NCBI GenBank assembly: GCA_964658305.1
Contig: OZ210885.1
Location: forward strand, 21,576,001 to 21,640,000
Source of the DNA: Leptogorgia sarmentosa
Taxonomy: Eukaryota
DNA: 64,000 nt
Direction: 5' to 3'
Positions 20,931 through 58,555 of this stretch are shown here, one piece after another. Both the position numbers and the translations under genes were made by a program. How positions within the stretch are numbered: position 1 is the first letter of the stretch; each line of letters begins with the position of its first letter. The notes beneath the pieces are model-generated. The model was not told the DNA's origin. It worked only from the letters and a program-made list of their open reading frames with translations, and made no database searches.

Positions 20931-20949
20931 TGATAAGAATACAAAAAAT

Positions 20950-32662: not shown

Positions 32663-34685
32663 TACAATAAAGTAATGCATGCTTTACAGGATTTAAGAAA
32701 TTACTATTACAATTGTAATACAATACAATATTACAAATTGATCAGATAAAATATACCCTGTTAAGAAGTCCATGAGATCATATTTCAAGAGAATTCGTAC
32801 AATATTTGGAATGAACCATTTTAAGGTGTTTGTATGGTTCCACTTCCAACGTATTAATCTCATGAGGAAGATCTTTCTGCACGGAACACCATGACTCATT
32901 AGTATAAGTCGTCCCAAAAGATACAATTTCCGTTTATCGACTTCAGCTTCGATTGGTGGTAAGCCCAGCAACCCTCGCGCAGCAGACCCTGATATTCCAG
33001 ATAATAACCCTTGCATAATGCGCACCGTAGTATTTTGCACTTTTTCCAGTTCAACAATGTCTTTACAATTCAATTGCCAAAGCTCGGAGCCATACAACAT
33101 CTTTGGGATACCAATCCGTTTCCATAACTGAACTGAAATTATAGGATTTAATCCTCCATATCAAGCTCCCATTTTCATTAAAACCATTCCGGATTCTCTT
33201 CCTCTGGTAACAGCTTTAGAAACGAATGCAGACGAATCCTTGTTGACATGCCATATTTTTCCAAGATTGAACCAAATTTCTTTTTCAAAATAACTCGTGA
33301 CCCAAGATGCCAATTTGTAATGCTGCGATTTACACTACGTTCCCGATGGCTTTCGCCAAACGTTAAAACTACCGTTTTCGTAGCATTAAATGTAAATCTC
33401 CATTTGTTGCTGTATTCCGAAGCACATCGTAACATTTTATCCAGTCCTGATTTCATACATGATAGCATAGTTAGATCATCCGCAAACATGGGTGATCCGA
33501 AATACACGGTGTTAATGCAAATTCCAGATTGAACGTTGCTCAATTCCTCGATAAGGTTGTCAATGAATACCAGGAAAAGCCAGGGTGATAAAACCCCACC
33601 TTGTCTTGTACCTTGCCCTAACTCGTATATACGAGATGGTTTTCCTTCAACAATAACAAATTCTTTCATGTTCAAGTAGCAATTTCGTATGAGCCGCCAA
33701 GTTTTGCCTGTTACCCCTTTGGTGTAGTATAGCTTGTAAAGCATTCCATTAATCCACATAGTGTCAAAGGCTTTTGAGATGTCCATATAGGCCGCATAAA
33801 CTTTATCATTATCCTCGGAACAGTGATTTATCACCTCTTCAATTGCAACATGTCGTAAGAGCATCCTGCTGTTTTTGATATCCACCCTGGAGAGGATGAT
33901 GGAGACAATTTTGTTGCTTTTGTAATTGTGATAATACTATACGTTCCAGGATTTTATTAACACAGGGCAATAAACTTATCCCTCGATGATCATCAAACAT
34001 GTGTGTTTTCTTATTGCCCTTAGGAATTGTTATTTTAATTGCCAATTTAAATGAACTTGGAATCTCTTCTCTATCGATAATACAAGTGTAAAGATTTAAT
34101 AATGCATGTATGACAGGGGCGGATCCAGACCGATGCAACCGGTGCACATGCATCGGTCAAATTTGTGAAACCATAAATAGCATGTCGATTATTATAATAC
34201 TCGCAATGGACGCAATGAGTCTGTGATTGTCTGGGATATATTCCTAATTCCTACATATTCCCTAAACGCAAATTGTTTACGCAAATGTAGCTTATAAATG
34301 CAGTATTTGCGCCAAATTCACGTATCTGTTTCCAGTATAAACAGACGAAATACAACGCACAAACGATAAATTTGTCAAACGGTATCTTTGTTGTCATGCG
34401 AGTGATGCAACAGTTTATCGTCAATAAGTTCTAGACAAATATTTAGACGGCGTTTTGGGGAAACATGAACTACGTCACTGTAGATGGAAATGCATCGGTA
34501 CGTCACAGTAGATTTGGAGTGCATCGGTATGTCACAGTAGATTTGCAGATGCATCGCTTGTGCGCCCGTCCCGAGTTCTTTTTCTGCGCGGAATCTACTG
34601 TGACATCATGAAAACCATTGTTTTGAGGTGACGTTGCAGTAGATTTGGTCCGCTGTCCGGTGCACTGTGTGCAGAATGCTGGCGC

Positions 34686-37600
34686 TTGACAAACTATGCA
34701 TGGTTGGCACCGCTAATTCTGGCGAATTCCGCCGTCATGTTACGAAGGCACGACGTACGTATCCTTCTTATCGTATATCACCCTTATGTTAAGGACAAGA
34801 CTCGTTTTTTCAAGTCCGAGAATACGACTTTCTCTGCATCTGCATCTGATGCTGCATTAGGTGATGGGTATGACCGCAAAAATCCCAACAGCAGGGTGGC
34901 AGTGGTAAGATGAGAGGCAGTGCGAAATGCTACAATTGGAACCTTTGCCTCACTTATGTGTGTATTTGCTTTGTCATCTGTCACTGGAATGAACATCATT
35001 TCAGTTTACCCAGAGGAGTTAGATCATGAGACCAAATACTCCCAATTTCAAAATGGAACTATATTTCCCAGAAGATGTCACAAAAATTTTTCAGGAAAAC
35101 TTGCTCAAAATGTAAAGCTCATCCTAATGTGGACAACTAATGGTATTGTTACTTTACCTGGATTGAGTGAAGACTTCCAACCCAACCATTTTGTACCGCT
35201 TTTAGAGTTTAACATAAATATAAATAAAAAGATAGGATCCTCCCAGCAGAAAAAAATTACTGACCATTTTCCATCTCATTGTGGAAAGAAAGAAGACAAT
35301 ATTGACTTAGAAGGTATGGTAATTAGAATTTATGTACATATAGTACTGGTATATATTCTTGTGGAATGTTATAACAGTAATAACACCCATTCAAAGACTT
35401 ATTTTTGCTCTTTTACTTATTCTTACAATTATATGTGTGATAATAGAGTGTGCTCTGCCTATGTCTGTAAATTTCTAGACCAAATAGAGCATAAAGGGGT
35501 TCAATATTCTTCAATCTGCAGGTTCTAACTATATTTCAACAAGATATTCTTTAAAATGTCACATTAAATTTAACATTTAGGGGTGTGTGAAGAATTGGCA
35601 GAAGATTTAGTGGAGAAAGTGAGCAGTGAAAGTCCTCCAGCAACAGCAGATTCAGAAAACGTCCCAAGCAGCAGCAGTGAAATTCATAAAACTCCCCCAG
35701 CAGCAGAGGATATTGCAAATCTTTCATGTGCCATTGATATTAATGAAGTGAACTGTGATCCTTTTAGGACCACAGCAAAACGTGAGTTAAATAATTTTGG
35801 TTGAAGGATTTTGTTTTATTTATGCAAAATCGATAGTCTACTGAACATATTATCCTTTGTTAAAAATCCTGAAACCTTGTTTAAGAGAAATGCTTAATAT
35901 TTTTTCGGTTAAAGATGGTGATTAAATATTGCATGTTTCAATGTTTTGATTAGGAACACATGCACCTAGTTTAATGGAAATGAAAAAACAAGATGAAGGG
36001 ACGTCTAAACGAATGAAAGTTGCCGATCTTCCCGATGTTGACCCTTTGGATATAGGGCGGTTTGTATCCATGGAGGCAATAGATGATGACACAAAGCTTA
36101 ACCTAATTAACAACCACTGGAAACCACCTCCAACCTTTAATTTTCCTTTGACTGAGTATGGTAAAACCCGTTCTGAACGTCGTAAATTTACTGCAAGTTG
36201 GCTTAATCGTTGGTCCTGGTTATGTTATTCCAAACTTCATGATGGAGCGTTTTGTCTTTCTTGTGTTCTGTTTGGTCAGGAGACTGGCCATAATTGCCAG
36301 AAACTCAACAAGCTATTCAAGGAGCCCTTGACGAATTGGAAAAGTGCTGCGACAAAACTCCAGGACCATCATCAACACTCCAAAATTCATCATGATTCTA
36401 TGATGAGAATGATAGATAGATAGATATTTTAATAAATTCTCCCTGAAAGGGTTTTTCAGAAATTATTTACATGTATGCAATAGCGGTTTTATATATAAGC
36501 TTAATAAATGGATCTTAAAATTATCTTAACTATGTACATGTTTTAGATTGTTGTGCTAAAAGTTTTTTCAAGCAAATCTTTCTTCAATGCTGCTTTAAAA
36601 GTCTTAAGAGAAGAGCTGTCTTTCAAGTTCTTTTCCAAATTGTTCCAGATGTGGAGGGCTCTAAATGCGAATGTTCGTTGACCAGCTGCAGTTTTAAATA
36701 GCGGTATTTGGAGAGAGTCGCATGTACGAGTGCTACGGTTGTGGATTGATGACCTTTTTATCAATTTGTTACAAAGGTAGTCGGGTGCAAGATTGTTTAC
36801 GCATTTGTACGTCAAAACAGCATCTCTAAAATATAGTAATTTGTCTACTGGAAGCCAATTTAGTTTACGTAGAAGTGGAGTTACGTGGTCATATTTCCTG
36901 GATTTCGTGATGATCTTACATGCAAAATTCTGGATCGACTGAACTTTCTTTACGTTGGTGGCAGATGTGTTCGACCAGACGGAGGAGCAATAAAGTATCT
37001 TGCTGATAACTAAGGACGAAATGATTTCCGATAGAGTTTTTGTGTCGAAACTATTTTTTGCACGATTTATCTGGTATAGTTTGTTCATGCACAACGAGAC
37101 AAGCAGCGATGTATGATTGTCATAATTTAAATGACTATCTAACGTAACACCTAAATCTTTAGCGAAGTCCGCTGGTCTGAGGGGTTTGCCCAAGAATGAT
37201 ACGGATATGTCTGTAGGTAGTCTGTTCATCAGCTGCTTTGTTCCAATTATCATGTACTTAGTTTTCCCAGGATTAATTAAAAGGTTGTTTTCACAGCACC
37301 AACTTGCGACTCTGTGTAGGTCTTGTTCGAGATTTGTGATTGCTGAGTCTATTTCGCGCAATGGAAAGGAGAGGAGAATTGAATGAATGATGCACTTCAG
37401 AACAGTAATGATGGGAGAAAGGAAAGGCATTCAAGAGCAAGTTGATAAGCTTAGAAGTGAGCGCATAGAGTACAACCGAAGTATTCTACAATCCATATCA
37501 AAAACGGTCATCTTGGCTGGGAGGCAGAATCTTCCGTTAAGAGGGCATCGTGATGACTCGCAGCATTATTCTTCTAAAAATCCTGGCAACTTCCAAGCTC

Positions 37601-39269
37601 TATTAAATTTCAGAGTTGACTCGGGTGACACGAAGCTTCAGCACCACTTTCAAAATGCAAAGAAGAATGCCACATATCGCTCGAAAACAGTCCAAAACAA
37701 GCTAGTGAAGATCTGCGGGGACCAAATACAGCAAAGCATCGTCAAGGACATCAAGAGCAGCGTTTGTCCAGTATATTCAGTTCTCGGAGATGAAGCAACG
37801 GACTGTAGCAATAGAGAGCAAATGCCCATTGTTTTGCGGTATGTCGATTCAAATAAAGAAATTAACGAAAGGTTTATCAAGTTCGTGGAATGCGATGATG
37901 GTGTTACTGGCGAGGCATTAGCAAAGAACGTAGAGGATACATTGGACGAAATTGGCTTACCACTCGGACAGTGTCGTGGCCAAGGGTATGATGGAGCCAG
38001 TGCAATGTCTAGCAAGTCAAAGGGTGTTTCTGGTCGCATTCTAAGCAAAAATTCTAAAGCAATCTATGTCCATTGTGCCAGCCATCGCTTAAATCTCGTG
38101 ATTGCCAAAACGTGCAAGCTTACGTCCGTAAGGAATATGTTGGGCCATGCACAGACGATTTCGACGTTTTACAGTCCTTCTCCCAAACGCACACAGGTTC
38201 TAAGGCAGAAAATTAAACAAATCGGTTTGAAGCGTCAAAAACTTGGAACTCCTTCAACGACTCGGTGGGTTGAACGGATAAATACCCTCGATGAATTTGT
38301 AAATGCATTTGAAGCTATTTTTCAAAGTTTGGAATACATGAAGACTAACGAGAATCATGATTTCGATAATTCAAGTAGTGATGCTGAACGGTTGTTTCTT
38401 TCAATCAAGAAATTCGAATTTATTGCTTGCCTTGTCATCACATCTAATCTTCTTCATCATACCTTGTCGTTGACTGTTCAGTTGCAGAAAAGGACTATCG
38501 ACATTGCTGAATCATTAAAACAGATTAATCTCTTGAAGGCGCAACTTCGAAACCTACGCAAATCAGTAGATGAGATACACAATCAATATTATGATCAAGC
38601 CCTGCAACTGGCATCGAATGTCGATGTTAAAGAAAAGTTCGTTCGCCTATGCACCACACAAACAAAACGAGAGAATTATCTTGTCGAAACAGCGCGCGAT
38701 TACTACCAAGTAAAACTAACAATTCCTATTCTTGACCACCTGATTGAGCAGGTTGAGTTCCGTTTTCCGTCAGAGACCTGCAACATCTACGACGGTTTCT
38801 ACATTATTCCTAAGAATTTCCTCAGATGTAAAGGGGTTGATTGGAAGGTCGAGTTCATGAAGTTTGTTTCTGCTTACCAAGACGATATGCCAAGTTATCA
38901 AACAATTCATGCCGAGTTAGGACTGTGGGAGACGAGTTGGAAAGAAGGTTTTGATCAAGTAGAATATGATTCCATCACTGATACTCTTCGGAACTGCAAC
39001 GAACTTGCATTTCCAAATATTTTTGCAGCACTTAAGATTCTTGCAGTACTTCCAGTAACTACTTGTGAATGCGAAAGATCTGTATCCGCTCTCCGCCGAA
39101 TGAAAACGTGGCTACGAAGCACCATGACTAATGAACGGTTGAATGGTCTTGCTCAGATGCATATCAATGACGACATAAACATTGATGTGGAAGAGGTCAT
39201 CAACACATTTCCCTGCAGAATCCAACCCGAATGCAATTTCTCGACGTCTTGGATGATGATGGTAAATGA
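34686..39269 (+). pseudogene. hAT transposase (ZMYM1/THAP12-P52rIPK-like) with upstream vertnin/OTU-like exon
   Basis: Exons ~34686-35313, 35581-35781 and 35954-39269, the last interrupted at 36414-37384. TTF-type finger WLCYS..GAFCLSC, LRGHRD, DEATD, GQGYDGA, HCASHRLNL, TRW and CERSVSALRR. A frameshift near 39210 precedes the likely true stop at 39267-39269. Confidence 0.85.
36414..37384 (-). mobile_element. 5'-truncated L2/CR1-type LINE 3' end inserted in the hAT transposase, TSD GAATGAT
   Basis: WCCENNLLINPGKTK, KDLGV, HVTPLLRKLNWLPV and WNNL motifs; (TATC)n tail. TSD at 36407-36413 and 37385-37391. Removal restores ...DSMMRMMHFRT. Confidence 0.9.
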
Positions 39270-39304
39270 ACAACTTTTTAAAATATGTCATTGCTATGTT
39301 TACT

Positions 39305-42300
39305 CGTGTCATCTTGAACATTTTACTCATTATTAATCGTGTCACCTGCTTCTGTTGGAAGATATTTTACCTTGAACATTTCACTCATTATTAATCGTGT
39401 CATCTGCTGCTTTTGGAAGATCCTTTTCCTTGAACATTTTACTCATTATTAATCGTGATATCTGCTGCTGTTGGAAGATCCTTTTCTTTGAACATTTTAC
39501 TAAAGATTTACTGTGTCATCTGCCGCTGTTGGAAGATCCTTTTCCTTGAACATTTTACTCATTATTAATCGTGTCACCTGCCGCTGTTGGAAGATTCTTT
39601 ACCTTGAACATTTTACTAAAGATTTACTGTGTCATCTGCTGCTGTTGGAAAATCCTTTTCCTTGAACATTTTACTAAAGATTTACTGTGTCATCTGCTGC
39701 TGTTGGAAGATCCTTTACCTTGAACATTTTACTAAAGATTTACTGTGTCATCTGCTGCTGTTGGAAGATCCTTTTCCTTGAACATTTTACTAAAGATTTA
39801 CTGTGTCATCTGCTGCTGTTGGAAGATCCTTTACCTTGAACATTTTACTAAAGATTTACTGTGTCATCTGCTGCTGTTGGAAGATCCTTTACCTTGAACA
39901 TTTTACTCATTATTAATCGTGTCATCTGCTGCTGTTGGAGGATATTTTACCTTGAACATTTTTCTCATTATTAATCGTGTCATCTGCTGCTGTTGAAAGA
40001 TCCTTTTCTTTGAACATTTTACTCATTATTAATCGTGTCATCTGCTGCTGTTGGAAGATCCTTTTCCTTGAACATTTTACTCATTATTATAATCGTGTCA
40101 TCTGCTGCTGTTGGAAGATCCTTTTCCTTGAACATTTTACTCATTATTAATCGTGTCATCTGCTGCTGTTGGAAGATCCTTTTCCTTGAACATTTTACTA
40201 AAGATTTTCTGTGTCATCTATGCTGTTGTTGGAAGATATTTTTTGCCTACGGCCAGTCTCCTGACCGAATGCCATCCTGCTGCTGTTGGAGGAAATCTAC
40301 CTTTGAACATTGTACTTATTAAACTCATCATCCTGCTGCTGTTGGAAGATCCTTTACCTTGAACATTTTACTCATTATTAATCGTGTCATCTGCTGCTGT
40401 TGGAAGATCCTTTTCCTTGAACATTTTACTCATTATTAATCGTGTTATCTGCTGCTGTTGGAAGATCCTTTTCCTTGAACATTTTACACATTATTAATCG
40501 TGTCATCTGCTGCTGTTGGAGGATATTTTACCTTGAACATTTTTCTCATTATTAATCGTGTCATCTGCTGCTGTTGGAAGATCCTTTTCCTTGAACATTT
40601 TACTCATTATTAATCGTGTCATCTGCTGCTGTTGGAAGATCCTTTTCCTTGAACATTTTACTCATTATTAATCGTGTCATCTGCTGCTGTTGGAAGATCC
40701 TTTACCTTGAACATTTTACTAAAGATTTACTGTGTCATCTGCTGCTGTTGGAAGATCCTTTTCCTTGAACATTTTACTAAAGATTTACTGTGTCATCTGC
40801 TGCTGTTGGAAGATCCTTTTCCTTGAACATTTTACTCATTATTAATCGTGTCATCTGCTGCTGTTGGAAGATCCCCTTTACCTTGAACATTTTACTAAAG
40901 ATTTACTGTGTCATCTGCTGCTGTTGGAAGATCCTTTTCCTTGAACATTTTACTAAAGATTTACTGTGTCATCTGCTGCTGTTGGAAGATCCTTTACCTT
41001 GAACATTTTACTAAAGATTTACTGTGTCATCTGCTGCTGTTGGAAGATCCTTTACCTTGAACATTTTACTCATTATTAATCGTGTCATCTGCTGCTGTTG
41101 GAAGATCCTTTTCCTTGAACATTTTACTCATTATTAATCGTGTCATCTGCTGCTGTTGGAAGATCCTTTTCCTTGAACATTTTACTAAAGATTTACTGTG
41201 TCATCTGCTGCTGTTGGAAGATCCTTTACCTTGAACATTTTACTAAAGATTTACTGTGTCATCTGCTGCTGTTGGAAGATCCTTTACCTTGAACATTTTA
41301 CTCATTATTAATCGTGTCATCTGCTGCTGTTGGAAGATCCTTCTCCTTGAACATTTTACTCATTATTAATCGTGTCATCTGCTGCTGTTGGAAGATCCTT
41401 TACCTTGAACATTTTACTAAAGATTTACTGTGTCATCTGCTGCTGTTGGAAGATCCTTTTCCTTGAACATTTTACTAAAGATTTACTGTGTCATCTGCTG
41501 CTGTTGGAAGATCCTTTACCTTGAACATTTTACTCATTATTAATCGTGTCATCTGCTGCTGTTGGAAGATCCTTTTCCTTGAACATTTTACTCATTATTA
41601 ATCGTGTCATCTGCTGCTGTTGGAAGATCCTTTACCTTGAACATTTTACTAAAGATTTACTGTGTCATCTGCTGCTGTTGGAAGATCCTTTTCCTTGAAC
41701 ATTTTACTCATTATTAATCGTGTCACCTGCCGCTGTTGGAAGATTCTTTACCTTGAACATTTTACTAAAGATTTACTGTGTCATCTGCTGCTGTTGGAAA
41801 ATCCTTTTCCTTGAACATTTTACTAAAGATTTACTGTGTCATCTGCTGCTGTTGGAAGATCCTTTACCTTGAACATTTTACTAAAGATTTACTGTGTCAT
41901 CTGCTGCTGTTGGAAGATCCTTTTCCTTGAACATTTTACTAAAGATTTACTGTGTCATCTGCTGCTGTTGGAAGATCCTTTACCTTGAACATTTTACTAA
42001 AGATTTACTGTGTCATCTGCTGCTGTTGGAAGATCCTTTACCTTGAACATTTTACTCATTATTAATCGTGTCATCTGCTGCTGTTGGAGGATATTTTACC
42101 TTGAACATTTTTCTCATTATTAATCGTGTCATCTGCTGCTGTTGAAAGATCCTTTTCTTTGAACATTTTACTCATTATTAATCGTGTCATCTGCTGCTGT
42201 TGGAAGATCCTTTTCCTTGAACATTTTACTCATTATTATAATCGTGTCATCTGCTGCTGTTGGAAGATCCTTTTCCTTGAACATTTTACTCATTATTAAT

Positions 42301-45300
42301 CGTGTCATCTGCTGCTGTTGGAAGATCCTTTTCCTTGAACATTTTACTAAAGATTTTCTGTGTCATCTATGCTGTTGTTGGAAGATATTTTTTGCCTACG
42401 GCCAGTCTCCTGACCGAATGCCATCCTGCTGCTGTTGGAGGAAATCTACCTTTGAACATTGTACTTATTAAACTCATCATCCTGCTGCTGTTGGAAGATC
42501 CTTTACCTTGAACATTTTACTCATTATTAATCGTGTCATCTGCTGCTGTTGGAAGATCCTTTTCCTTGAACATTTTACTCATTATTAATCGTGTTATCTG
42601 CTGCTGTTGGAAGATCCTTTTCCTTGAACATTTTACACATTATTAATCGTGTCATCTGCTGCTGTTGGAGGATATTTTACCTTGAACATTTTTCTCATTA
42701 TTAATCGTGTCATCTGCTGCTGTTGGAAGATCCTTTTCCTTGAACATTTTACTCATTATTAATCGTGTCATCTGCTGCTGTTGGAAGATCCTTTTCCTTG
42801 AACATTTTACTCATTATTAATCGTGTCATCTGCTGCTGTTGGAAGATCCTTTACCTTGAACATTTTACTAAAGATTTACTGTGTCATCTGCTGCTGTTGG
42901 AAGATCCTTTTCCTTGAACATTTTACTAAAGATTTACTGTGTCATCTGCTGCTGTTGGAAGATCCTTTTCCTTGAACATTTTACTCATTATTAATCGTGT
43001 CATCTGCTGCTGTTGGAAGATCCCCTTTACCTTGAACATTTTACTAAAGATTTACTGTGTCATCTGCTGCTGTTGGAAGATCCTTTTCCTTGAACATTTT
43101 ACTAAAGATTTACTGTGTCATCTGCTGCTGTTGGAAGATCCTTTACCTTGAACATTTTACTAAAGATTTACTGTGTCATCTGCTGCTGTTGGAAGATCCT
43201 TTACCTTGAACATTTTACTCATTATTAATCGTGTCATCTGCTGCTGTTGGAAGATCCTTTTCCTTGAACATTTTACTCATTATTAATCGTGTCATCTGCT
43301 GCTGTTGGAAGATCCTTTTCCTTGAACATTTTACTAAAGATTTACTGTGTCATCTGCTGCTGTTGGAAGATCCTTTACCTTGAACATTTTACTAAAGATT
43401 TACTGTGTCATCTGCTGCTGTTGGAAGATCCTTTACCTTGAACATTTTACTCATTATTAATCGTGTCATCTGCTGCTGTTGGAAGATCCTTCTCCTTGAA
43501 CATTTTACTCATTATTAATCGTGTCATCTGCTGCTGTTGGAAGATCCTTTACCTTGAACATTTTACTAAAGATTTACTGTGTCATCTGCTGCTGTTGGAA
43601 GATCCTTTTCCTTGAACATTTTACTAAAGATTTACTGTGTCATCTGCTGCTGTTGGAAGATCCTTTACCTTGAACATTTTACTCATTATTAATCGTGTCA
43701 TCTGCTGCTGTTGGAAGATCCTTTTCCTTGAACATTTTACTCATTATTAATCGTGTCATCTGCTGCTGTTGGAAGATCCTTTACCTTGAACATTTTACTA
43801 AAGATTTACTGTGTCATCTGCTGCTGTTGGAAGATCCTTTTCCTTGAACATTTTACTAAAGATTTACTGTGTCATCTGCTGCTGTTGGAAGATCCTTTTC
43901 CTTGAACATTTTACTCATTATTAATCGTGTCATCTGCTGCTGTTGGAAGATCCCCTTTACCTTGAACATTTTACTAAAGATTTACTGTGTCATCTGCTGC
44001 TGTTGGAAGATCCTTTTCCTTGAACATTTTACCAAAGATTTACTGTGTCATCTGCTGCTGTTGGAAGATCCTTTACCTTGAACATTTTACTAAAGATTTA
44101 CTGTGTCATCTGCTGCTGTTGGAAGATCCTTTACCTTGAACATTTTACTCATTATTAATCGTGTCATCTGCTGCTGTTGGAAGATCCTTTTCCTTGAACA
44201 TTTTACTCATTATTAATCGTGTCATCTGCTGCTGTTGGAAGATCCTTTTCCTTGAACATTTTACTAAAGATTTACTGTGTCATCTGCTGCTGTTGGAAGA
44301 TCCTTTACCTTGAACATTTTACTAAAGATTTACTGTGTCATCTGCTGCTGTTGGAAGATCCTTTACCTTGAACATTTTACTCATTATTAATCGTGTCATC
44401 TGCTGCTGTTGGAAGATCCTTCTCCTTGAACATTTTACTCATTATTAATCGTGTCATCTGCTGCTGTTGGAAGATCCTTTACCTTGAACATTTTACTAAA
44501 GATTTACTGTGTCATCTGCTGCTGTTGGAAGATCCTTTTCCTTGAACATTTTACTAAAGATTTACTGTGTCATCTGCTGCTGTTGGAAGATCCTTTACCT
44601 TGAACATTTTACTCATTATTAATCGTGTCATCTGCTGCTGTTGGAAGATCCTTTTCCTTGAACATTTTACTCATTATTAATCGTGTCATCTGCTGCTGTT
44701 GGAAGATCCTTTACCTTGAACATTTTACTAAAGATTTACTGTGTCATCTGCTGCTGTTGGAAGATCCTTTTCCTTGAACATTTTACTAAAGATTTACTGT
44801 GTCATCTGCTGCTGTTGGAGGATATTTTACCTTGAACATTTTACTCATTATTAATCGTGTCATCTGCTGCTGTTGGAAGATCCTTTTCCTTGAACATTTT
44901 ACTCATTATTAATCGTGTCATCTGCTGCTGTTGGAAGATCCTTTACCTTGAACATTTTACTAAAGATTTACTGTGTCATCTGCTGCTGTTGGAAGATCCT
45001 TTTCCTTGAACATTTTACTAAAGATTTACTGTGTCATCTGCTGCTGTTGGAAGATCCTTTACCTTGAACATTTTACTCATTATTAATCGTGTCATCTGCT
45101 GCTGTTGGAAGATCCTTTTCCTTGAACATTTTACTCATTATTAATCGTGTCATCTGCTGCTGTTGGAAGATCCTTTACCTTGAACATTTTACTCATTATT
45201 AATCGTGTCATCTGCTGCTGTTGGAAGATCCTTTTCCTTGAACATTTTACTAAAGATTTACTGTGTCATCTGCTGCTGTTGGAAGATCCTTTTCCTTGAA

Positions 45301-48300
45301 CATTTTACTAAAGATTTACTGTGTCATCTGCTGCTGTTGGAGGATATTTTACCTTGAACATTTTTCTCATTCTTAATCGTGTCATCTGCTGCTGTTGAAA
45401 GATCCTTTTCTTTGAACATCTTACTCATTATTAATCGTGTCATCTGCTGCTGTTGGAAGATCCTTTTCCTTGAACATTTTACTCATTATTATAATCGTGT
45501 CATCTGCTGCTGTTGGAAGATCCTTTTCCTTGAACATTTTACTCATTATTAATCGTGTCATCTGCTGCTGTTGGAAGATCCTTTTCCTTGAACATTTTAC
45601 TAAAGATTTTCTGTGTCATCTATGCTGTTGTTGGAAGATATTTTTTGCCTACGGCCAGTCTCCTGACCGAATGCCATCCTGCTGCTGTTGGAGGAAATCT
45701 ACCTTTGAACGTTGTACTTATTAAACTCATCATCCTGCTGCTGTTGGAAGATCCTTTACCTTGAACATTTTACTCATTATTAATCGTGTCATCTGCTGCT
45801 GTTGGAAGATCCTTTTCCTTGAACATTTTACTAAAGATTTACTGTGTCATCTGCTGCTGTTGGAAGATCCTTTACCTTGAACATTTTACTCATTATTAAT
45901 CGTGTCATCTGCTGCTGTTGGAAGATCCTTTTCCTTGAACATTTTACTCATTATTAATCGTGTCATCTTCTGCTGTTGGAAGATCCTTTACCTTGAACAT
46001 TTTACTAAAGATTTACTGTGTCATCTGCTGCTGTTGGAAGATCCTTTTCCTTGAACATTTTACTAAAGATTTACTGTGTCATCTGCTGCTGTTGGAGGAT
46101 ATTTTACCTTGAACATTTTTCTCATTCTTAATCGTGTCATCTGCTGCTGTTGAAAGATCCTTTTCTTTGAACATTTTACTCATTATTAATCGTGTCATCT
46201 GCTGCTGTTGGAAGATCCTTTTCCTTGAACATTTTACTCATTATTATAATCGTGTCATCTGCTGCTGTTGGAAGATCCTTTTCCTTGAACATTTTACTCA
46301 TTATTAATCGTGTCATCTGCTGCTGTTGGAAGATCCTTTTCCTTGAACATTTTACTAAAGATTTTCTGTGTCATCTATGCTGTTGTTGGAAGATATTTTT
46401 TGCCTACGGCCAGTCTCCTGACCGAATGCCATCCTGCTGCTGTTGGAGGAAATCTACCTTTGAACATTGTACTTATTAAACTCATCATCCTGCTGCTGTT
46501 GGAAGATCCTTTACCTTGAACATTTCACTCATTATTAATCGTGTCATCTGCTGCTGTTGGAAGATCCTTTTCCTTGAACATTTTACACATTATTAATCGC
46601 GTCATCTGCTGCTGTTGGAGGATGTTTTACCTTGAACATTTTTCTCATTATTAATCGTGTCATCTGCTGCTGTTGGAAGATCCTTTTCCTTGAACATTTT
46701 ACTCATTATTAATCGTGTCATCTGCTGCTGTTGGAAGATCCTTTTCCTTGAACATTTTACTCATTATTATAATCGTGTCATCTGCTGCTGTTGGAAGATC
46801 CTTTTCCTTGAACATTTTACTCATTATTAATCGTGTCATCTGCTGCTGTTGGAAGATCCTTTTCCTTGAACATTTTACTAAAGATTTTCTGTGTCATCTA
46901 TGCTGTTGTTGGAAGATATTTTTTGCCTACGGCCAGTCTCCTGACCGAATGCCATCCTGCTGCTGTTGGAGGAAATCTACCTTTGAACGTTGTACTTATT
47001 AAACTCATCATCCTGCTGCTGTTGGAAGATCCTTTACCTTGAACATTTTACTCATTATTAATCGTGTCATCTGCTGCTGTTGGAAGATCCTTTTCCTTGA
47101 ACATTTTACTAAAGATTTACTGTGTCATCTGCTGCTGTTGGAAGATCCTTTACCTTGAACAGTTTACTCATTATTAATCGTGTCATCTGCTGCTGTTGGA
47201 AGATCCTTTACCTTGAACATTTTACTAAAGATTTACTGTGTCATCTGCTGCTGTTGGAAGATCCTTTTCCTTGAACATTTTACTAAAGATTTACTGTGTC
47301 ATCTGCTGCTGTTGGAAGATCCTTTACCTTGAACAGTTTACTCATTATTAATCGTGTCATCTGCTGCTGTTGGAAGATCCTTTTCCTTGAACATTTTACT
47401 CATTATTAATCGTGTCATCTGCTGCTGTTGGAAGATCCTTTACCTTGAACATTTTACTAAAGATTTACTGTGTCATCTGCTGCTGTTGGAAGATCCTTTT
47501 CCTTGAACATTTTACTAAAGATTTACTGTGTCATCTGCTGCTGTTGGAGGATATTTTACCTTGAACATTTTTCTCATTCTTAATCGTGTCATCTGCTGCT
47601 GTTGAAAGATCCTTTTCTTTGAACATTTTACTCATTATTAATCGTGTCATCTGCTGCTGTTGGAAGATCCTTTTCCTTGAACATTTTACTCATTATTATA
47701 ATCGTGTCATCTGCTGCTGTTGGAAGATCCTTTTCTTTGAACATTTTACTAAAGATTTACTGTGTCATCTGCCGCTGTTGGAAGATCCTTTTCCTTGAAC
47801 ATTTTACTCATTATTAATCGTGTCACCTGCCGCTGTTGGAAGATTCTTTACCTTGAACATTTTACTAAAGATTTACTGTGTCATCTGCTGCTGTTGGAAA
47901 ATCCTTTTCCTTGAACATTTTACTAAAGATTTACTGTGTCATCTGCTGCTGTTGGAAGATCCTTTACCTTGAACATTTTACTAAAGATTTACTGTGTCAT
48001 CTGCTGCTGTTGGAAGATCCTTTTCCTTGAACATTTTACTAAAGATTTACTGTGTCATCTGCTGCTGTTGGAAGATCCTTTACCTTGAACATTTTACTAA
48101 AGATTTACTGTGTCATCTGCTGCTGTTGGAAGATCCTTTACCTTGAACATTTTACTCATTATTAATCGTGTCATCTGCTGCTGTTGGAGGATATTTTACC
48201 TTGAACATTTTTCTCATTATTAATCGTGTCATCTGCTGCTGTTGAAAGATCCTTTTCTTTGAACATTTTACTCATTATTAATCGTGTCATCTGCTGCTGT

Positions 48301-51300
48301 TGGAAGATCCTTTTCCTTGAACATTTTACTCATTATTATAATCGTGTCATCTGCTGCTGTTGGAAGATCCTTTTCCTTGAACATTTTACTCATTATTAAT
48401 CGTGTCATCTGCTGCTGTTGGAAGATCCTTTTCCTTGAACATTTTACTAAAGATTTTCTGTGTCATCTATGCTGTTGTTGGAAGATATTTTTTGCCTACG
48501 GCCAGTCTCCTGACCGAATGCCATCCTGCTGCTGTTGGAGGAAATCTACCTTTGAACATTGTACTTATTAAACTCATCATCCTGCTGCTGTTGGAAGATC
48601 CTTTACCTTGAACATTTTACTCATTATTAATCGTGTCATCTGCTGCTGTTGGAAGATCCTTTTCCTTGAACATTTTACTCATTATTAATCGTGTTATCTG
48701 CTGCTGTTGGAAGATCCTTTTCCTTGAACATTTTACACATTATTAATCGTGTCATCTGCTGCTGTTGGAGGATATTTTACCTTGAACATTTTTCTCATTA
48801 TTAATCGTGTCATCTGCTGCTGTTGGAAGATCCTTTTCCTTGAACATTTTACTCATTATTAATCGTGTCATCTGCTGCTGTTGGAAGATCCTTTTCCTTG
48901 AACATTTTACTCATTATTAATCGTGTCATCTGCTGCTGTTGGAAGATCCTTTACCTTGAACATTTTACTAAAGATTTACTGTGTCATCTGCTGCTGTTGG
49001 AAGATCCTTTTCCTTGAACATTTTACTAAAGATTTACTGTGTCATCTGCTGCTGTTGGAAGATCCTTTTCCTTGAACATTTTACTCATTATTAATCGTGT
49101 CATCTGCTGCTGTTGGAAGATCCCCTTTACCTTGAACATTTTACTAAAGATTTACTGTGTCATCTGCTGCTGTTGGAAGATCCTTTTCCTTGAACATTTT
49201 ACTAAAGATTTACTGTGTCATCTGCTGCTGTTGGAAGATCCTTTACCTTGAACATTTTACTAAAGATTTACTGTGTCATCTGCTGCTGTTGGAAGATCCT
49301 TTACCTTGAACATTTTACTCATTATTAATCGTGTCATCTGCTGCTGTTGGAAGATCCTTTTCCTTGAACATTTTACTCATTATTAATCGTGTCATCTGCT
49401 GCTGTTGGAAGATCCTTTTCCTTGAACATTTTACTAAAGATTTACTGTGTCATCTGCTGCTGTTGGAAGATCCTTTACCTTGAACATTTTACTAAAGATT
49501 TACTGTGTCATCTGCTGCTGTTGGAAGATCCTTTACCTTGAACATTTTACTCATTATTAATCGTGTCATCTGCTGCTGTTGGAAGATCCTTTTCCTTGAA
49601 CATTTTACTCATTATTAATCGTGTCATCTGCTGCTGTTGGAAGATCCTTTACCTTGAACATTTTACTAAAGATTTACTGTGTCATCTGCTGCTGTTGGAA
49701 GATCCTTTTCCTTGAACATTTTACTAAAGATTTACTGTGTCATCTGCTGCTGTTGGAAGATCCTTTACCTTGAACATTTTACTCATTATTAATCGTGTCA
49801 TCTGCTGCTGTTGGAAGATCCTTTTCCTTGAACATTTTACTCATTATTAATCGTGTCATCTGCTGCTGTTGGAAGATCCTTTACCTTGAACATTTTACTA
49901 AAGATTTACTGTGTCATCTGCTGCTGTTGGAAGATCCTTTTCCTTGAACATTTTACTAAAGATTTACTGTGTCATCTGCTGCTGTTGGAGGATATTTTAC
50001 CTTGAACATTTTACTCATTATTAATCGTGTCATCTGCTGCTGTTGGAAGATCCTTTTCCTTGAACATTTTACTCATTATTAATCGTGTCATCTGCTGCTG
50101 TTGGAAGATCCTTTACCTTGAACATTTTACTAAAGATTTACTGTGTCATCTGCTGCTGTTGGAAGATCCTTTTCCTTGAACATTTTACTAAAGATTTACT
50201 GTGTCATCTGCTGCTGTTGGAAGATCCTTTACCTTGAACAGTTTACTCATTATTAATCGTGTCATCTGCTGCTGTTGGAAGATCCTTTTCCTTGAACATT
50301 TTACTAAAGATTTACTGTGTCATCTGCTGCTGTTGGAAGATCCTTTACCTTGAACATTTTACTCATTATTAATCGTGTCATCTGCTGCTGTTGGAAGATC
50401 CTTTTCCTTGAACATTTTACTCATTATTAATCGTGTCATCTGCTGCTGTTGGAAGATCCTTTACCTTGAACATTTTACTCATTATTAATCGTGTCATCTG
50501 CTGCTGTTGGAAGATCCTTTTCCTTGAACATTTTACTAAAGATTTACTGTGTCATCTGCTGCTGTTGGAAGATCCTTTTCCTTGAACATTTTACTAAAGA
50601 TTTACTGTGTCATCTGCTGCTGTTGGAGGATATTTTACCTTGAACATTTTTCTCATTCTTAATCGTGTCATCTGCTGCTGTTGAAAGATCCTTTTCTTTG
50701 AACATTTTACTCATTATTAATCGTGTCATCTGCTGCTGTTGGAAGATCCTTTTCCTTGAACATTTTACTCATTATTATAATCGTGTCATCTGCTGCTGTT
50801 GGAAGATCCTTTTCCTTGAACATTTTACTCATTATTAATCGTGTCATCTGCTGCTGTTGGAAGATCCTTTTCCTTGAACATTTTACTAAAGATTTTCTGT
50901 GTCATCTATGCTGTTGTTGGAAGATATTTTTTGCCTACGGCCAGTCTCCTGACCGAATGCCATCCTGCTGCTGTTGGAGGAAATCTACCTTTGAACGTTG
51001 TACTTATTAAACTCATCATCCTGCTGCTGTTGGAAGATCCTTTACCTTGAACATTTTACTCATTATTAATCGTGTCATCTGCTGCTGTTGGAAGATCCTT
51101 TTCCTTGAACATTTTACTAAAGATTTACTGTGTCATCTGCTGCTGTTGGAAGATCCTTTACCTTGAACATTTTACTCATTATTAATCGTGTCATCTGCTG
51201 CTGTTGGAAGATCCTTTTCCTTGAACATTTTACTCATTATTAATCGTGTCATCTGCTGCTGTTGGAAGATCCTTTACCTTGAACATTTTACTAAAGATTT

Positions 51301-54300
51301 ACTGTGTCATCTGCTGCTGTTGGAAGATCCTTTTCCTTGAACATTTTACTAAAGATTTACTGTGTCATCTGCTGCTGTTGGAGGATATTTTACCTTGAAC
51401 ATTTTTCTCATTCTTAATCGTGTCATCTGCTGCTGTTGAAAGATCCTTTTCTTTGAACATTTTACTCATTATTAATCGTGTCATCTGCTGCTGTTGGAAG
51501 ATCCTTTTCCTTGAACATTTTACTCATTATTATAATCGTGTCATCTGCTGCTGTTGGAAGATCCTTTTCCTTGAACATTTTACTCATTATTAATCGTGTC
51601 ATCTGCTGCTGTTGGAAGATCCTTTTCCTTGAACATTTTACTAAAGATTTTCTGTGTCATCTATGCTGTTGTTGGAAGATATTTTTTGCCTACGGCCAGT
51701 CTCCTGACCGAATGCCATCCTGCTGCTGTTGGAGGAAATCTACCTTTGAACATTGTACTTATTAAACTCATCATCCTGCTGCTGTTGGAAGATCCTTTAC
51801 CTTGAACATTTCACTCATTATTAATCGTGTCATCTGCTGCTGTTGGAAGATCCTTTTCCTTGAACATTTTACACATTATTAATCGCGTCATCTGCTGCTG
51901 TTGGAGGATGTTTTACCTTGAACATTTTTCTCATTATTAATCGTGTCATCTGCTGCTGTTGGAAGATCCTTTTCCTTGAACATTTTACTCATTATTAATC
52001 GTGTCATCTGCTGCTGTTGGAAGATCCTTTTCCTTGAACATTTTACTCATTATTATAATCGTGTCATCTGCTGCTGTTGGAAGATCCTTTTCCTTGAACA
52101 TTTTACTCATTATTAATCGTGTCATCTGCTGCTGTTGGAAGATCCTTTTCCTTGAACATTTTACTAAAGATTTTCTGTGTCATCTATGCTGTTGTTGGAA
52201 GATATTTTTTGCCTACGGCCAGTCTCCTGACCGAATGCCATCCTGCTGCTGTTGGAGGAAATCTACCTTTGAACGTTGTACTTATTAAACTCATCATCCT
52301 GCTGCTGTTGGAAGATCCTTTACCTTGAACATTTTACTCATTATTAATCGTGTCATCTGCTGCTGTTGGAAGATCCTTTTCCTTGAACATTTTACTAAAG
52401 ATTTACTGTGTCATCTGCTGCTGTTGGAAGATCCTTTACCTTGAACAGTTTACTCATTATTAATCGTGTCATCTGCTGCTGTTGGAAGATCCTTTTCCTT
52501 GAACATTTTACTCATTATTAATCGTGTCATCTGCTGCTGTTGGAAGATCCTTTACCTTGAACATTTTACTAAAGATTTACTGTGTCATCTGCTGCTGTTG
52601 GAAGATCCTTTTCCTTGAACATTTTACTAAAGATTTACTGTGTCATCTGCTGCTGTTGGAAGATCCTTTACCTTGAACATTTTACTCATTATTAATCGTG
52701 TCATCTGCTGCTGTTGGAGGATATTTTACCTTGAACATTTTACTCATTATTAATCGTGTCATCTGCTGCTGTTGGAAGATCCTTTTCCTTGAACATTTTA
52801 CTCATTATTATAATCGTGTCATCTGCTGCTGTTGGAAGATCCTTTTCCTTGAACATTTTACTCATTATTAATCGTGTCATCTGCTGCTGTTGGAAGATCC
52901 TTTTCCTTGAACATTTTACTAAAGATTTACTGTGTCATCTGCTGCTGTTGGAGGATATTTTACCTTGAACATTTTTCTCATTCTTAATCGTGTCATCTGC
53001 TGCTGTTGAAAGATCCTTTTCTTTGAACATTTTACTCATTATTAATCGTGTCATCTGCTGCTGTTGGAAGATCCTTTTCCTTGAACATTTTACTCATTAT
53101 TATAATCGTGTCATCTGCTGCTGTTGGAAGATCCTTTTCCTTGAACATTTTACTCATTATTAATCGTGTCATCTGCTGCTGTTGGAAGATCCTTTTCCTT
53201 GAACATTTTACTCATTATTAATCGTGTCATCTGCTGCTGTTGGAAGATCCTTTACCTTGAACATTTTAATCATTATTAATCGTGTTATCTGCTGCTGTTG
53301 GAGGAAATCTACATTTGAACGTTGTACTTATTAAACTCATTATCCTGCTGCTGTTGGAAGATCCTTTACCTTGAACATTTTACTCATTATTAATCGTGTC
53401 ATCTGCTGCTGTTGGAAGATCCTTTTCTTTGAACATTTTACTCATTATTAATCGTGTCATCTGCTGCTGTTGGAAGATCCTTTTCCTTGAACATTTCACT
53501 CATTATTAATCGTGTCATCTGCTGCTGTTGGAAGATCCTTTTCCTTGAACATTTTACTCATTATTAATCGTGTCATCTGCTGCTGTTGGAAGATCCTTTT
53601 CCTTGAACATTTTACTCATTATTAATCGTGTCATCTGCTGCTGGTGGAAGATCCTTTTCCTTGAACATTTTACTCATTATTAATTGTGTCATCTGCTGCT
53701 GTTGGAAGATCCTTTTCCTTGAACATTTTACTCATTATTAATCGTGTCATCTGCTGCTGTTGGAAGATCCTTTACCTTGAACATTTTACTAAAGATTTAC
53801 TGTGTCATCTGCTGCTGTTGGAAGATCCTTTACCTTGAACATTTTACTCATTATTAATCGTGTCATCTGCTGCTGTTGGAGGATATTTTACCTTGAACAT
53901 TTTTCTCATTATTAATCGTGTCATCTGCTGCTGTTGAAAGATCCTTTTCCTTGAACATTTTACTAAAGATTTACTGTGTCATCCATGCTGCTGTTGGAAG
54001 ATCATTTTTGCCTATGGCCAGTCTCCTGACCAAATGCCATCCTGCTGCTGTTGGAGGAAATCTACCTTTGAACATTGTACTTATTAAACTCATTATCCTG
54101 CTGCTGTTGGAAGATCCTTTACCTTGAATATTTTAATCATTATTAATCGTGTCATCTGCTGCTGTTGGAAGATCCTTTACCTTGAACATTTTAATCATTA
54201 TTAATCGTGTTATCTGCTGCTGTTGGAGGAAATCTACATTTGAACGTTGTACTTATTAAACTCATTATCCTGCTGCTGTTGGAAGATCCTTTACCTTGAA

Positions 54301-55489
54301 CATTTTACTCATTATTAATCGTGTCATCTGCTGCTGTTGGAAGATCCTTTTCTTTGAACATTTTACTCATTATTAATCGTGTCATCTGCTGCTGTTGGAA
54401 GATCCTTTTCCTTGAACATTTCACTCATTATTAATCGTGTCATCTGCTGCTGTTGGAAGATCCTTTTCCTTGAACATTTTACTCATTATTAATCGTGTCA
54501 TCTGCTGCTGTTGGAAGATCCTTTTCCTTGAACATTTTACTCATTATTAATCGTGTTATCTGCTGCTGTTGGAAGATCCTTTTCCTTGAACATTTTACTC
54601 ATTATTAATCGTGTCACCTGCTGCTGTTGGAAGATTCTTTTCCTTGAACATTTTACTCATTATTAATCGTGTCACCTGCTGCTGTTGGAAGATCCTTTTC
54701 CTTGAACATTTTACTCATTATTAATCGTGTTATCTGCTGCTGTTGGAAGATCCTTTACCTTGAACATTTTACTCATTATTAATCGTGTCATCTGCTGCTG
54801 TTGGAAGATCCTTTACCTTGAACATTTTACTCATTATTAATCGTGTCATCTGCTGCTGTTGGAAGATCCTTTACCTTGAACATTTTACTCATTATTAATC
54901 GTGTCATCTGCTGCTGTTGGAAGATCCTTTACCTTGAACATTTTACTCATTATTAATCGTGTCATCTGCTGCTGTTGGAAGATCCTTTTCCTTGAACATT
55001 TTACTCATTATTAATCGTGTTATCTGCTGCTGTTGGAAGATCCTTTTCCTTGAACATTTTACTCATTATTAATCGTGTCACCTGCTGCTGTTGGAAGATC
55101 CTTTTCCTTGAACATTTTACTCATTATTAATCGTGTCACCTGCTGCTGTTGGAGGAAATCTACATTTGAACATTGTACTTATTAAACTCATTTTCCTGCT
55201 GCTGTTGGAAGATCCTTTACCTTGAACATTTTACTCATTATTAATCGTGTCATCTGCTGCTGTTGGAAGATCCTTTTCCTTGAACATTTTACTCATTATT
55301 AATCGTGTTATCTGCTGCTGTTGGAAGATCCTTTTCCTTGAACATTTTACTCATTATTAATCGTGTCATCTGCTGCTGTTGGAAGATCCTTTTCCTTGAA
55401 CATTTTACTCATTATTAATCGTGTTATCTGCTGCTGTTGGAGGATATTTTACCTTGAACATTTTTCTCATTATTAATCGTGTCATCTGC
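39305..55489. repeat. 58-bp satellite array, about 280 monomers, with higher-order duplications
   Basis: Monomer GTGTCATCTGCTGCTGTTGGAAGATCCTTT(T/A)CCTTGAACATTTTACT followed by either CATTATTAATC or AAAGATTTACT. Confidence 0.99.
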
Positions 55490-57399
55490 CACTTACGGTA
55501 TTGGCGAAGCAACAATTTCTGATAAACTGTGAAACCATGCTCCTGTTGACTGCAGTACGTTACACATATCTAGGCAGGGAGGCGGTGCCTGAGCAATTTC
55601 TTCACTGTGTTTTCACAGAAAGAAAATGGTTATGCGTCTACTCTCTTGCCGTTGTTCCTCGCTCTCTTGAATGTAAAGGTGAGTAGAAATAGGAAGAGAC
55701 GAAAGGTGGGTGGAAACCGGGTGCGCATGGTAAGCATTTTTGTTTTGCATAGGTCTAGTTTATTTTCAATCTAATTCATAATAGCGTCATCGTCTTGTGT
55801 ATTGGTGATGTTTTATCCACATTTTTTCTGCAATTGCGCCTCTATTTTGCTCAGTTTGAAAGGTGTATTTGTTCTTGAAATGTTCGCTCAGAATGCTGGA
55901 AATGGCATTTGCGAGGTCCGAATTTCAAAAATTTTCGGGGGGGAAATGCCCCCGGACCCCCCTAATTTGGTGTAGGTCTTCTAATGTGCACCGGTCAAAC
56001 CAAATGCTGGATCCGCCCGTGATGTATGATCATTTCTCCACCAAATTTTAGGTTCTAATAACCTCTGAAATTTCCTGAGTTGTTAACGGTACAGTAAATA
56101 TACAGCCTAGAGCATTCTCTGAGTTTTCTACGATATCATTTACTCCATTTTCAATTTCAATTCGGAGAATTCAATCAAAATTCTCATTATCTTCTGAAGG
56201 TGTTGCTAACTGTTCAAAATAATTTGCCCAGAGATCTGCCATTTGCTGTGAATCCGTGATAATTTTACCATTTACCTCTAGTAACATTTTTCCAAGTAAC
56301 ATTCCTGCATGCCTTATTATTTAACAGTCTCCAAAATTTTTCATTATCTAGGTCTTGCAAATTACCGATGTCATTGAGTTCTTTCCTCTCATACTCCCAC
56401 ACGGCTCTCCTCTGTTCACGTCTGTATTCGCATTTTAGTTTTTTATACTTTATATAGAAAATATTACTACTTTGTCTTAGAGATCCTGCTCTTATCCAAT
56501 CTGCTCTTGCAGCCATGACGGATTTTCTTAAATCTTTAAGTTTTTTATTCCAGAACGGTTTTATATGCTTTTTAAAATTCACTCTCGGTAACATTTGATC
56601 TGCATTTCTAATAATTTCAATCAGTTTCTCATAAATAGCGTTTGCATCACATAAATTAATATTCTCCCAAACATTACTTAATAATAAGTTATGATTTTCC
56701 TGATAACTACTCAGTTGTTCCGCAGTACAACGTCTCCATGGTATTTTGTCATAGGTATTTATGCTGTAATTTGCAATATCTTTTGAAATTCGGTCTGACA
56801 CTTGGACAGACAAACATAGTTTCAGTGGTAAATGAAATGCTGTATTGTCAGGATGCTCACTACATCTCTCTACTGAATCGAAAAACTCCATTAATGCATT
56901 ATCAATAATCACATAGTCAACAATAGAGTTTCCAGTTCTAGAGATGTATGTAAATTGGGGTTTTTCACAAACAGGTGATACATTCACAGGAATTAGATTT
57001 AACACATTAAAAAATTCCTGTAGTTTAAGTCCCCTTTTGTTTAACATCTGATGCAGACTTGTTTCTTGCAAATGTGCATTGAAGTCCCCAAGTAGGACCA
57101 AGTTTAAGCCATAACTCTTTTGCTGGATACAAAACTGCTCTAACTCGTAAAGTATGTTTAGATAATCGGTAAAACTGTAGTTCGTGGATGGAAAATAGAC
57201 TGATACCACAGCAATTTTCATGTTTTCTATTATTATTGATGCCGATACTATACGATCACAGGAAGTTTGTATTTCTCTCGCTTTTAAACATTTTTTGAAA
57301 AGCAGTGCGACACCGCCTTGGCCCCTTCTCCACCGCTTGTTAATATTATTATTCGAGCTGCTACACGAAATAACATCGAAGTTATTATCTAAACTGTCC

Positions 57400-58555
57400 A
57401 ACAGGTGGGAAATTTGTCTGAGCATGCGCGGGAAATCCCCACGAGACGTGCGTGTATTTTGCGGGAAGAAGAAATGTACATTTCACGAACAATCAAAACA
57501 AATCTTGTGTCGATTCTGAATGGCATACTTCTACCTACTGTTTACAGTCACAAGTTAATCTGCAATAATTAGAATTTTCTGTGAAATGTTCCTATTGTAA
57601 CTAGGATGACAATATTTATGTCGTAAAGGTTTAAATATCAGCGACAGAGCTCAAATCACGGCGGGGCAAAATAACTTGTGATGGGGCGTGAGATTTCACT
57701 TCTACCGAAGGCTAAAATACAAACCCCGGGCCTATTCAAGGCCCTATTTTGACGCTTACAAGTAAAGTATCACAAGAAAATACATGAAGTGGAGAATACT
57801 TTTGGAATGTTTCATCGTGAGGCCACCGCCAGTTTTTGAAATATCTTCATTTCATTGCCGGTTATCATTATAATTACACTGAAGCCTGACTTGAATAAAC
57901 ACAAAATTTTGAATCTCATCAAATACAAAAATATTTCATTTCTAACCAAATTATGCTCACGAAATCTAAATTAAAAGCTTTATTTTTAAACTAGACCTTT
58001 CTTGAAGCAGATTTGATGATGTAAATTCACTTTTGGGCCTTTGATTCTTGGCCAGAATTTGACCACAACACGTGTGAAGCAAGTGGGTCTCAAACACTTA
58101 ACTAAAGCATCATGAGGCCCTATTTTCCTGTTGATAGGTTTGGTACCACTAAACGCCAAAGAAGTGTTTCTTTCCATTTAGCTATATTTGAAATTGAGGC
58201 CACCGGCGATTTTTACAAAAATACAGTTCAAAGTCAAGCTTTTTTCACAAATTTTCAAAATTCGCACAAGTTACACTAACAAACAAATTATGGGAAATTT
58301 GAGAAATAAAAAGAATAATTTCAACTTACATTTCATTCTCATACCACGTTTTCCTCGTTGATTACGGTTTCAAACAAGCCAAATCTCGACATTTATGGTG
58401 TTTGCCACTCATTTGCTCCTATGTTAACGTCGCCATATTCACTTCTTCCACACACTCGATTGCAAAAAAAATCATCGCAAAACAAGGAATTCATGATCGA
58501 TCTTAAAAGATTAAGCACTAAAGTTAGAGATCATTTGACAAATTTCCCACCTGTT
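57400..58555. mobile_element. Non-autonomous TIR element with 9-bp (or 11-bp) TSD, MULE-like
   Basis: TIR AACAGGTGGGAAATTTGTC / GACAAATTTCCCACCTGTT. TSD AAACTGTCC at 57391-57399 and 58556-58564 duplicates the LINE codons LDSL. Confidence 0.9.

Follow-up and report, generated by a model that had tools for sequence, protein, structure and literature searches.

A satellite-sized tandem array between the transposase gene and the right end of a hAT transposon in Leptogorgia sarmentosa

How does a tandem array of some 16 kb come to lie inside a DNA transposon with both ends intact? The question is raised by a stretch of 64,000 nucleotides from Leptogorgia sarmentosa (assembly GCA_964658305.1, contig OZ210885.1, positions 21,576,001 to 21,640,000; hereafter the window). 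A preliminary description of the window had reported terminal inverted repeats (TIRs) and a perfect 8-bp target-site duplication (TSD) enclosing 21.9 kb, a 58-bp array between stop codon and right TIR, and a host LINE frame (GGEMII-HALLNL) that rejoins across the TSD. Our analysis bears out all three observations. The element (34114-56021, 21.9 kb) has 15-bp TIRs identical at 14/15 positions, carries ATGTATGA at both ends as its 8-bp TSD, and lies inside a LINE. In-silico removal of the element and one TSD restores the LINE frame, which reads through as ...KFGGEMII/HALLNLYTC... (slash at the junction) with Pfam LINE matches on either side. The array, in turn, begins 44 bp past the family stop at 39269, preceded by a partial unit that starts near 39300, and 532 bp separate its last base from the end of the element. 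The 8-bp TSD, the short TIRs and a DDE transposase with CxxH motif and C-terminal dimerisation domain are all features of the hAT superfamily. The components of the locus are collected in Table 1.

Table 1. Components of the hAT element and its host LINE (window coordinates)
Feature	Position	Strand	Remarks
Host LINE, RT-coding 3' part	32693..34113	-	Pfam RVT_1 E 1e-18; RT match 33178-33936
Left target-site duplication	34106..34113	.	ATGTATGA
Left 15-bp TIR	34114..34128	+	14/15 identical to right TIR
Left subterminal arm, multi-copy	34129..34764	+	3 x 29-bp mini-repeat at 34471-34556
First transposase exon remnant, second half of OTU-like domain	34765..35330 (end approximate)	+	67-75% DNA identity to L003/L004/L006
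Linker exon (splice sites inferred)	35581..35781	+	CAGCAGCAG / PPAA-type coding repeats
Transposase exon before nested LINE	35954..36406	+	contains 36271-36292, source of the antisense patch in variant D
Nested 5'-truncated LINE fragment, 978 bp	36407..37384	-	7-bp TSD GAATGAT; splits transposase exon
hAT transposase core (DUF4371, DDE triad, CxxH, dimerisation domain)	37385..39269	+	frameshift near 39210; family stop ends at 39269
Tandem array	39313..55489	+	TRF: 278.6 copies of 58-bp unit; 278 units by core anchor
D-type unit with antisense patch	54010..54066	-	54013-54034 = 22/22 reverse complement of exon 36271-36292
Right arm	55490..56006	+	last ~130 bp 77% identical to right end of L001
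Right 15-bp TIR	56007..56021	-	14/15 identical to left TIR
Right target-site duplication	56022..56029	.	ATGTATGA; bridged by one X3 contig
Host LINE, endonuclease part and probable ORF1 pieces	56030..60089	-	Pfam endonuclease 56265-57482

The probable ORF1 pieces of the host LINE (58688-60089) gave no Pfam match. The right arm aligns with the right end of a related element (L001, see below), which led us to reject a second element, present as its inverted left end, as the source of the arm. Near the right end, a G/C-rich motif (55913-55986) is found in many other sequences, with peak contig depth and many loose contig ends, and probably represents a terminal motif that several transposon families have in common. 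The surroundings hold decayed retrotransposon pieces (Gypsy-like, Pao/BEL and probable DIRS-like) and a MULE fragment (12537-16457, minus strand; 1-1168, plus; 60174-62178, plus; 22210-25242, minus; 20363-20959, minus), so that the window as a whole is transposon-dense. A DDE_3 (Tc1/mariner-like) transposase split by a stop lies at 31162-32202. Large fragmented ORFs of 538 and 408 aa at 25727-29785 (plus strand), with a Cys-rich C-terminus and no Pfam match, are likely to represent another decayed DNA transposon, and a diverged 40/41-bp repeat with a 121-bp higher period (9022-9319) is possibly the end of yet another.

The units of the array fall into four types (162 A, 93 B, 13 C and 10 D) and are arranged in a homogenised centre with diverged edges, interspersed with exact block duplications of 0.6-2.2 kb, the longest exact repeats measuring 2184, 1883, 1818 and 1240 bp. 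Unique units gather at the margins, with 14 of 18 lying among the 10 units at the start or the 35 at the end of the array, against 2.9 expected, although these edge widths were chosen after viewing the list and the associated p-value is not a fair test. Edge-clustered unique units together with block duplications are the usual signature of unequal exchange. The array is long, homogenised and head-to-tail like satellite DNA, but it is bounded by a transposon, and we do not use the term satellite in its stand-alone heterochromatic sense.

The 16-kb figure itself rests on the assembly. Second copies of exact repeats of at least 600 bp account for 6,741 of the 16,177 array bases, and masking them leaves 9,436 bp, a floor if those copies were assembly errors; the true length could lie between 9.4 and 16.2 kb. 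Independent support comes from the contigs of four public runs (X1, X3, X4 and X6) belonging to two studies; among the 16 public runs listed, all of them contigs, nine contain the stretch or part of it. That the array is real but its length inflated by assembly error is, in our estimation, very unlikely: exact duplicated blocks of up to 2184 bp do cover 6.7 kb and the length is known from the assembly alone, but 9.4 kb survive their masking, the blocks are nested and carry private variants, and the depth of contigs on the unit is tens to hundreds of times that of the flanks in all four runs.

A main result of the comparative analysis is that the repeat is shared with other hAT families. A scan of metagenome contigs with the transposase yielded six related loci (L001-L006) from 148 candidates, of which L001, L003, L004 and L005 are informative, L002 ending before the stop and L006 mid-gene. 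The preliminary description had named sister hATs devoid of the 58-mer as grounds for refuting it; what we find is that related hATs carry the unit, a homologous repeat of 50-60 bp directly following the transposase stop in 4/4 informative loci. The window unit aligns with those of the four relatives with scores of 37, 34 and 40 (0/500 shuffles as high) and 24 (1/500), and a CTGCTGC core is present in all five. In L001, with 80% protein identity, the array comprises 7.4 units of 60 bp and ends 529 bp from the element end, as against 532 bp here, and the right ends of both elements align. L004 (62% protein identity) holds 3.6 units of 50 bp before running off the contig end, and one unit each is visible in L003 and L005, whose contigs end within the first units. 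These loci amount to about three independent families, given the 92% identity of L003 and L004 and an assembly prefix common to three of the loci; the complete short array is seen in one relative only (L001), which represents another family rather than a sister copy. In a quick tree of 60 rows (the window, five loci and 54 of the first 61 matches, of at least 480 aa), a clade of 25 rows (SH-aLRT 100) has array-bearing members on each of its two main branches, rows without DNA counting as unknown for the array, not as negative. The transposase alignment found no relatives in genome contigs (161 candidates) or viral contigs (65 candidates), the right-end pattern had no matches in either collection, and a 30-base unit core had none in metagenome contigs.

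Judging from these sequence comparisons, the repeat is an old part of this hAT clade, neither born in the window copy nor captured from outside. Its clade-wide presence at the same position points to the amplification of an ancestral internal repeat, and not to the birth of a new monomer. Hence, of the two origins put forward in the preliminary description, the first (a satellite born in the 3' region of the element and expanded in place) stands insofar as the array is the element's own 3' repeat, expanded, and falls insofar as that repeat is not newly born and, being shared by related hATs, is far older than the copy. The second, in which the element moves satellite blocks, is not supported as capture, the unit being homologous to the clade's own 3' repeat. 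Capture of a pre-existing host satellite, whether by Pack-TIR-like gap filling or by insertion into the element, is largely refuted and retains a very slight probability: gap filling into TIR elements is described as common in animals in the accessible part of PMC8277862, and three X6 contigs continue past the unit with sequence that the window lacks, but three other families have homologous units at the corresponding place, and the array edges show neither a second TSD nor a foreign flank. The three X6 contigs do mean that not every array end is flanked by the arms of the hAT element; they could reflect nested insertions or fragments.

The transposase gene of this copy, on whose state the preliminary description is silent, is broken in four ways (a 5' deletion, an in-frame TGA, a nested LINE and a 1-bp frameshift), which renders the copy non-autonomous and dependent on transposase supplied in trans. 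The first exon has lost its start and the segment with the catalytic Cys and holds the TGA at 34911-34913, and the contigs of 4/4 runs diverge after 34764, continuing into other sequence. The nested LINE is likewise absent from contigs of 4/4 runs, which join 36406 to 37385 and omit its 978 bp. The core retains Pfam matches to DUF4371 and Dimer_Tnp_hAT (33.8 bits, cut-off 21.4) and the motifs GDEAT, GYDGA, CASHR and CECERS, which are conserved across homologues and to which we assign the DDE and CxxH residues. Upstream of it, the region 35950-36420, examined for the N-terminal BED zinc finger of hATs, gave no Pfam match and has a CxxC...H...H pattern conserved in homologues, and the donor site of the linker exon resembles that of L006. 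A PTAA-type motif occurs in the linkers of L002, L003, L004 and L006. In L006 (1593-1643), within the linker exon of the L001/L006 family, a (CAG)17 run codes for poly-Ala at this motif, which is to say that what appears to be the core of the repeat unit has there been expanded within a coding region.

The nearest named homologues of the transposase are octocoral '52 kDa repressor ...-like' proteins (Xenia, 71%; Dendronephthya, 61-65%), the same that mark THAP12/P52rIPK-like (DUF4371) cnidarian hATs, and the clade presumably belongs to the Tip100 group. It differs from those THAP12/P52rIPK-like elements in having an N-terminal OTU-like domain. In the intact related transposases L003 (65-1555) and P0097, this N-terminal OTU-like protease domain scores 23.7-24.6 bits in Pfam (cut-off 23.3); a PDB search with the region gave weak matches alone (best E 0.035). 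OTU domains occur on Ginger and Helitron proteins (PMC2836005), and we found no mention of them on hATs in the accessible part of that article and nothing on hATs in that of PMC6431247.

The contigs of the public runs also bear on where the array lengthened. Its junction with the stop is crossed by an X1 contig (38834-39381), which represents a different allele or a sister copy, and by an X4 contig (39031-39425). An X3 contig (55989-56320, one difference) spans right TIR, TSD and LINE, so that the X3 individual, which comes from another study, carries the same insertion. Among the contigs listed, none bridges the array to the right arm or crosses the left TSD, and none represents an empty site; coverage is missing immediately right of the TSD in X1, X4 and X6, and over parts of the right arm in X4 and X6, gaps that prove nothing in either case. 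Loose contig ends start exactly at 34114 in 4/4 runs and thus indicate sister copies at other sites. In each of the four runs, contig depth on the left arm (34114-34764) exceeds that on the transposase body roughly tenfold, an excess that suggests many short non-autonomous derivatives; in X1 the summed depth of the arm is about 1100-2500, against 85-91 in the flank, which is not a copy number. X1 contigs also contain internal deletion joints (37568-38904 and 38933-39220). Summed X1 depth is about 410-560 beside the array, 39,000-76,000 on the unit and 43-105 in the flanks, figures that again are not copy numbers and at most hint that several copies bear arrays and that the genome-wide total is modest. 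At face value, they would correspond to several sister copies with arrays averaging about 100 units, in which case a long array could have moved.

Related elements do carry short arrays along when they move, as L001 illustrates. That the array had already grown long in an earlier copy of the family, and that a swollen element of 10-22 kb was then moved here in trans, with the family dispersing long blocks, nonetheless seems unlikely. The perfect TSD, the near-perfect TIRs, the light decay of the host LINE, the occurrence of this insertion in an individual from a different study and, more weakly, the several arm variants beside the array and the high unit depth in X1 would all agree with such a history; they have to be set against kb-scale duplications so exact that growth must be recent enough for no mutations to have arisen, against the short array of the one complete relative (L001), and against the fact that no second long copy was seen.

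Variant D of the unit holds sequence that matches the gene preceding the array. Besides the D unit that matches the transposase exon in full (Table 1), nine further D units, the first at 40245, match it at 20/22 positions; a 22-mer match by chance has an expectation of 6e-6. The codons concerned (FGQETGH) are conserved in transposase homologues, and for this reason copying is likely to have run from the exon to the array. A template switch during repair, a process described for TIR elements in the accessible part of PMC8277862, is the likely source of the patch. The part specific to variant D is not equalled by any of 48 background segments in its score against the 5' half of the element. Extending this origin to all unit types, as mosaics of antisense exon pieces, was rejected for A, B and C, for which 38, 10 and 16 of 48 background segments, respectively, scored as high.

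Read antisense, the unit core resembles the PTAA-coding linker motif of the transposases. Antisense matches with p of at most 0.02 were obtained in 18/48 comparisons with 5' regions and in 0/16 with control regions (sense, 2/64), but these comparisons share one core, and the dinucleotide shuffles behind them lose the CAG runs that are common in Ala/Gln linkers. One sense-strand match is as strong as some of the antisense ones, a 13-base core match occurs also in an unrelated element at 28345, and row wA of the comparison combines an A unit with a B-like unit. A link between the shared core and the linker coding motif may be proposed as suggestive only. A census of PTAA motifs in distant homologues, in which 3/120 proteins passed the filter, was uninformative.

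Taken together, we think it probable that a short post-stop repeat of this hAT family was amplified about 40-fold, likely by unequal exchange and probably for the most part after insertion at this site. The unit would predate the split between the two main branches of the clade. By analogy with the subterminal motifs of hATs or the repeats of VANDAL elements, it is likely to have been kept since because its CTGCTGCTG core would serve in cis, most probably as a motif on which a protein encoded by the element docks. The array would then have lengthened by unequal crossing-over or gene conversion, and the D patch would have arisen when the template was switched during repair to the 5' half of the same element, to be multiplied afterwards with the block containing it. 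Most of the growth would have taken place in situ, since long cargo reduces cut-and-paste efficiency and this copy needs its transposase in trans.

The second of these steps admits a different version, in which the repeat is neutral baggage devoid of cis function and owes its persistence to descent and concerted evolution; we grant it the smaller, though still appreciable, share of the explanation just given. Unit length (50, 58 and 60 bp) and most of the unit sequence vary between families, and the array lies 530 bp inside the element, deeper than the end regions mapped for Herves in the accessible part of PMC3143072, whereas the CTGCTGC core has been kept across 62-80% protein identity, as have the position of the repeat and its distance from the end. 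A bolder conjecture, drawn from sequence features and in our opinion quite improbable, is that, in this OTU-bearing cnidarian hAT clade, the 3' array is functional, runs antisense to the clade's own transposase gene and is refreshed by inverted exon copying. Such an array would be self-regulating, through silencing by fold-back mRNA or through protein docking mirrored in the coding linker, and could run away to satellite size with the element still bounded and movable.

More generally, the locus documents a bounded transposon-to-satellite series in hATs, from about 7 units in one relative to 278 here, at the same position and the same distance from the end, with the TSD and the host LINE frame marking the insertion. 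As another individual carries the same insertion, the rate of array growth is measurable across alleles. The antisense exon patch, together with a 3' repeat conserved between families at 62-80% protein identity, further suggests a possible cis role. Within the mostly open-access literature searched, we found no hAT whose 3' array is conserved across a clade and no satellite derived from a hAT, which is weak evidence of absence; in the accessible part of PMC9659126, 'hAT' appears twice, both times in the references.

Among hATs, a parallel is provided by the Arabidopsis element Tag1, which has a different motif and belongs to a different hAT lineage. Its right-end motifs reportedly lie in a few minisatellite units of 55-74 bp, and we know of no expansion of these repeats to satellite size. 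As far as the accessible part of PMC3143072 goes, hATs carry subterminal binding motifs, and the Tag1 transposase binds short repeated right-end motifs (R-TGACCC). A second parallel comes from the VANDAL elements of Arabidopsis, whose non-coding tandem repeats are bound by VANC, vary between related families and multiply a short motif (PMC5735166, in part). The hAT described here, whose array may work in a similar way if it has a function, likewise holds family-variable, non-coding tandem repeats in which a short motif (the CTGCTGC core) is kept and multiplied, as in the docking arrays of VANDAL/VANC; unlike VANDAL, it shows no separate VANC-like gene and belongs to another superfamily and kingdom.

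Two further systems concern the growth of such arrays. miDNA4, a Tc1/mariner MITE of Xenopus tropicalis, contains an internal satellite as a monomer or in arrays of variable length and has been proposed as a satellite seed (accessible parts of PMC12628747 and PMC9659126). In Drosophila virilis, the tandem repeats inside the TIR element Tetris / TIR-220 have been amplified to satellite-like arrays of kb size (PMC4079207, in part). The element in the window shares with transposons of this kind the occurrence of the same unit at the same place and in lower copy number in relatives (7.4 in L001). As far as those sources go, it resembles miDNA4 in being a DNA transposon with an internal unit in variable arrays, and differs from it in its broken full transposase gene, in a post-stop array that extends to 16 kb while the TIRs and TSD around it are intact, and in a repeat common to divergent families. 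The repeats of Tetris, for their part, lie in the foldback TIRs of a non-coding element, whereas the array here is one-sided, confined to the 3' region and accompanied by short TIRs. Transposon-internal arrays that grow into satellites are thus already known for other types of transposon, and what this locus adds, as far as the literature searched goes, is the case of a hAT with both ends intact.
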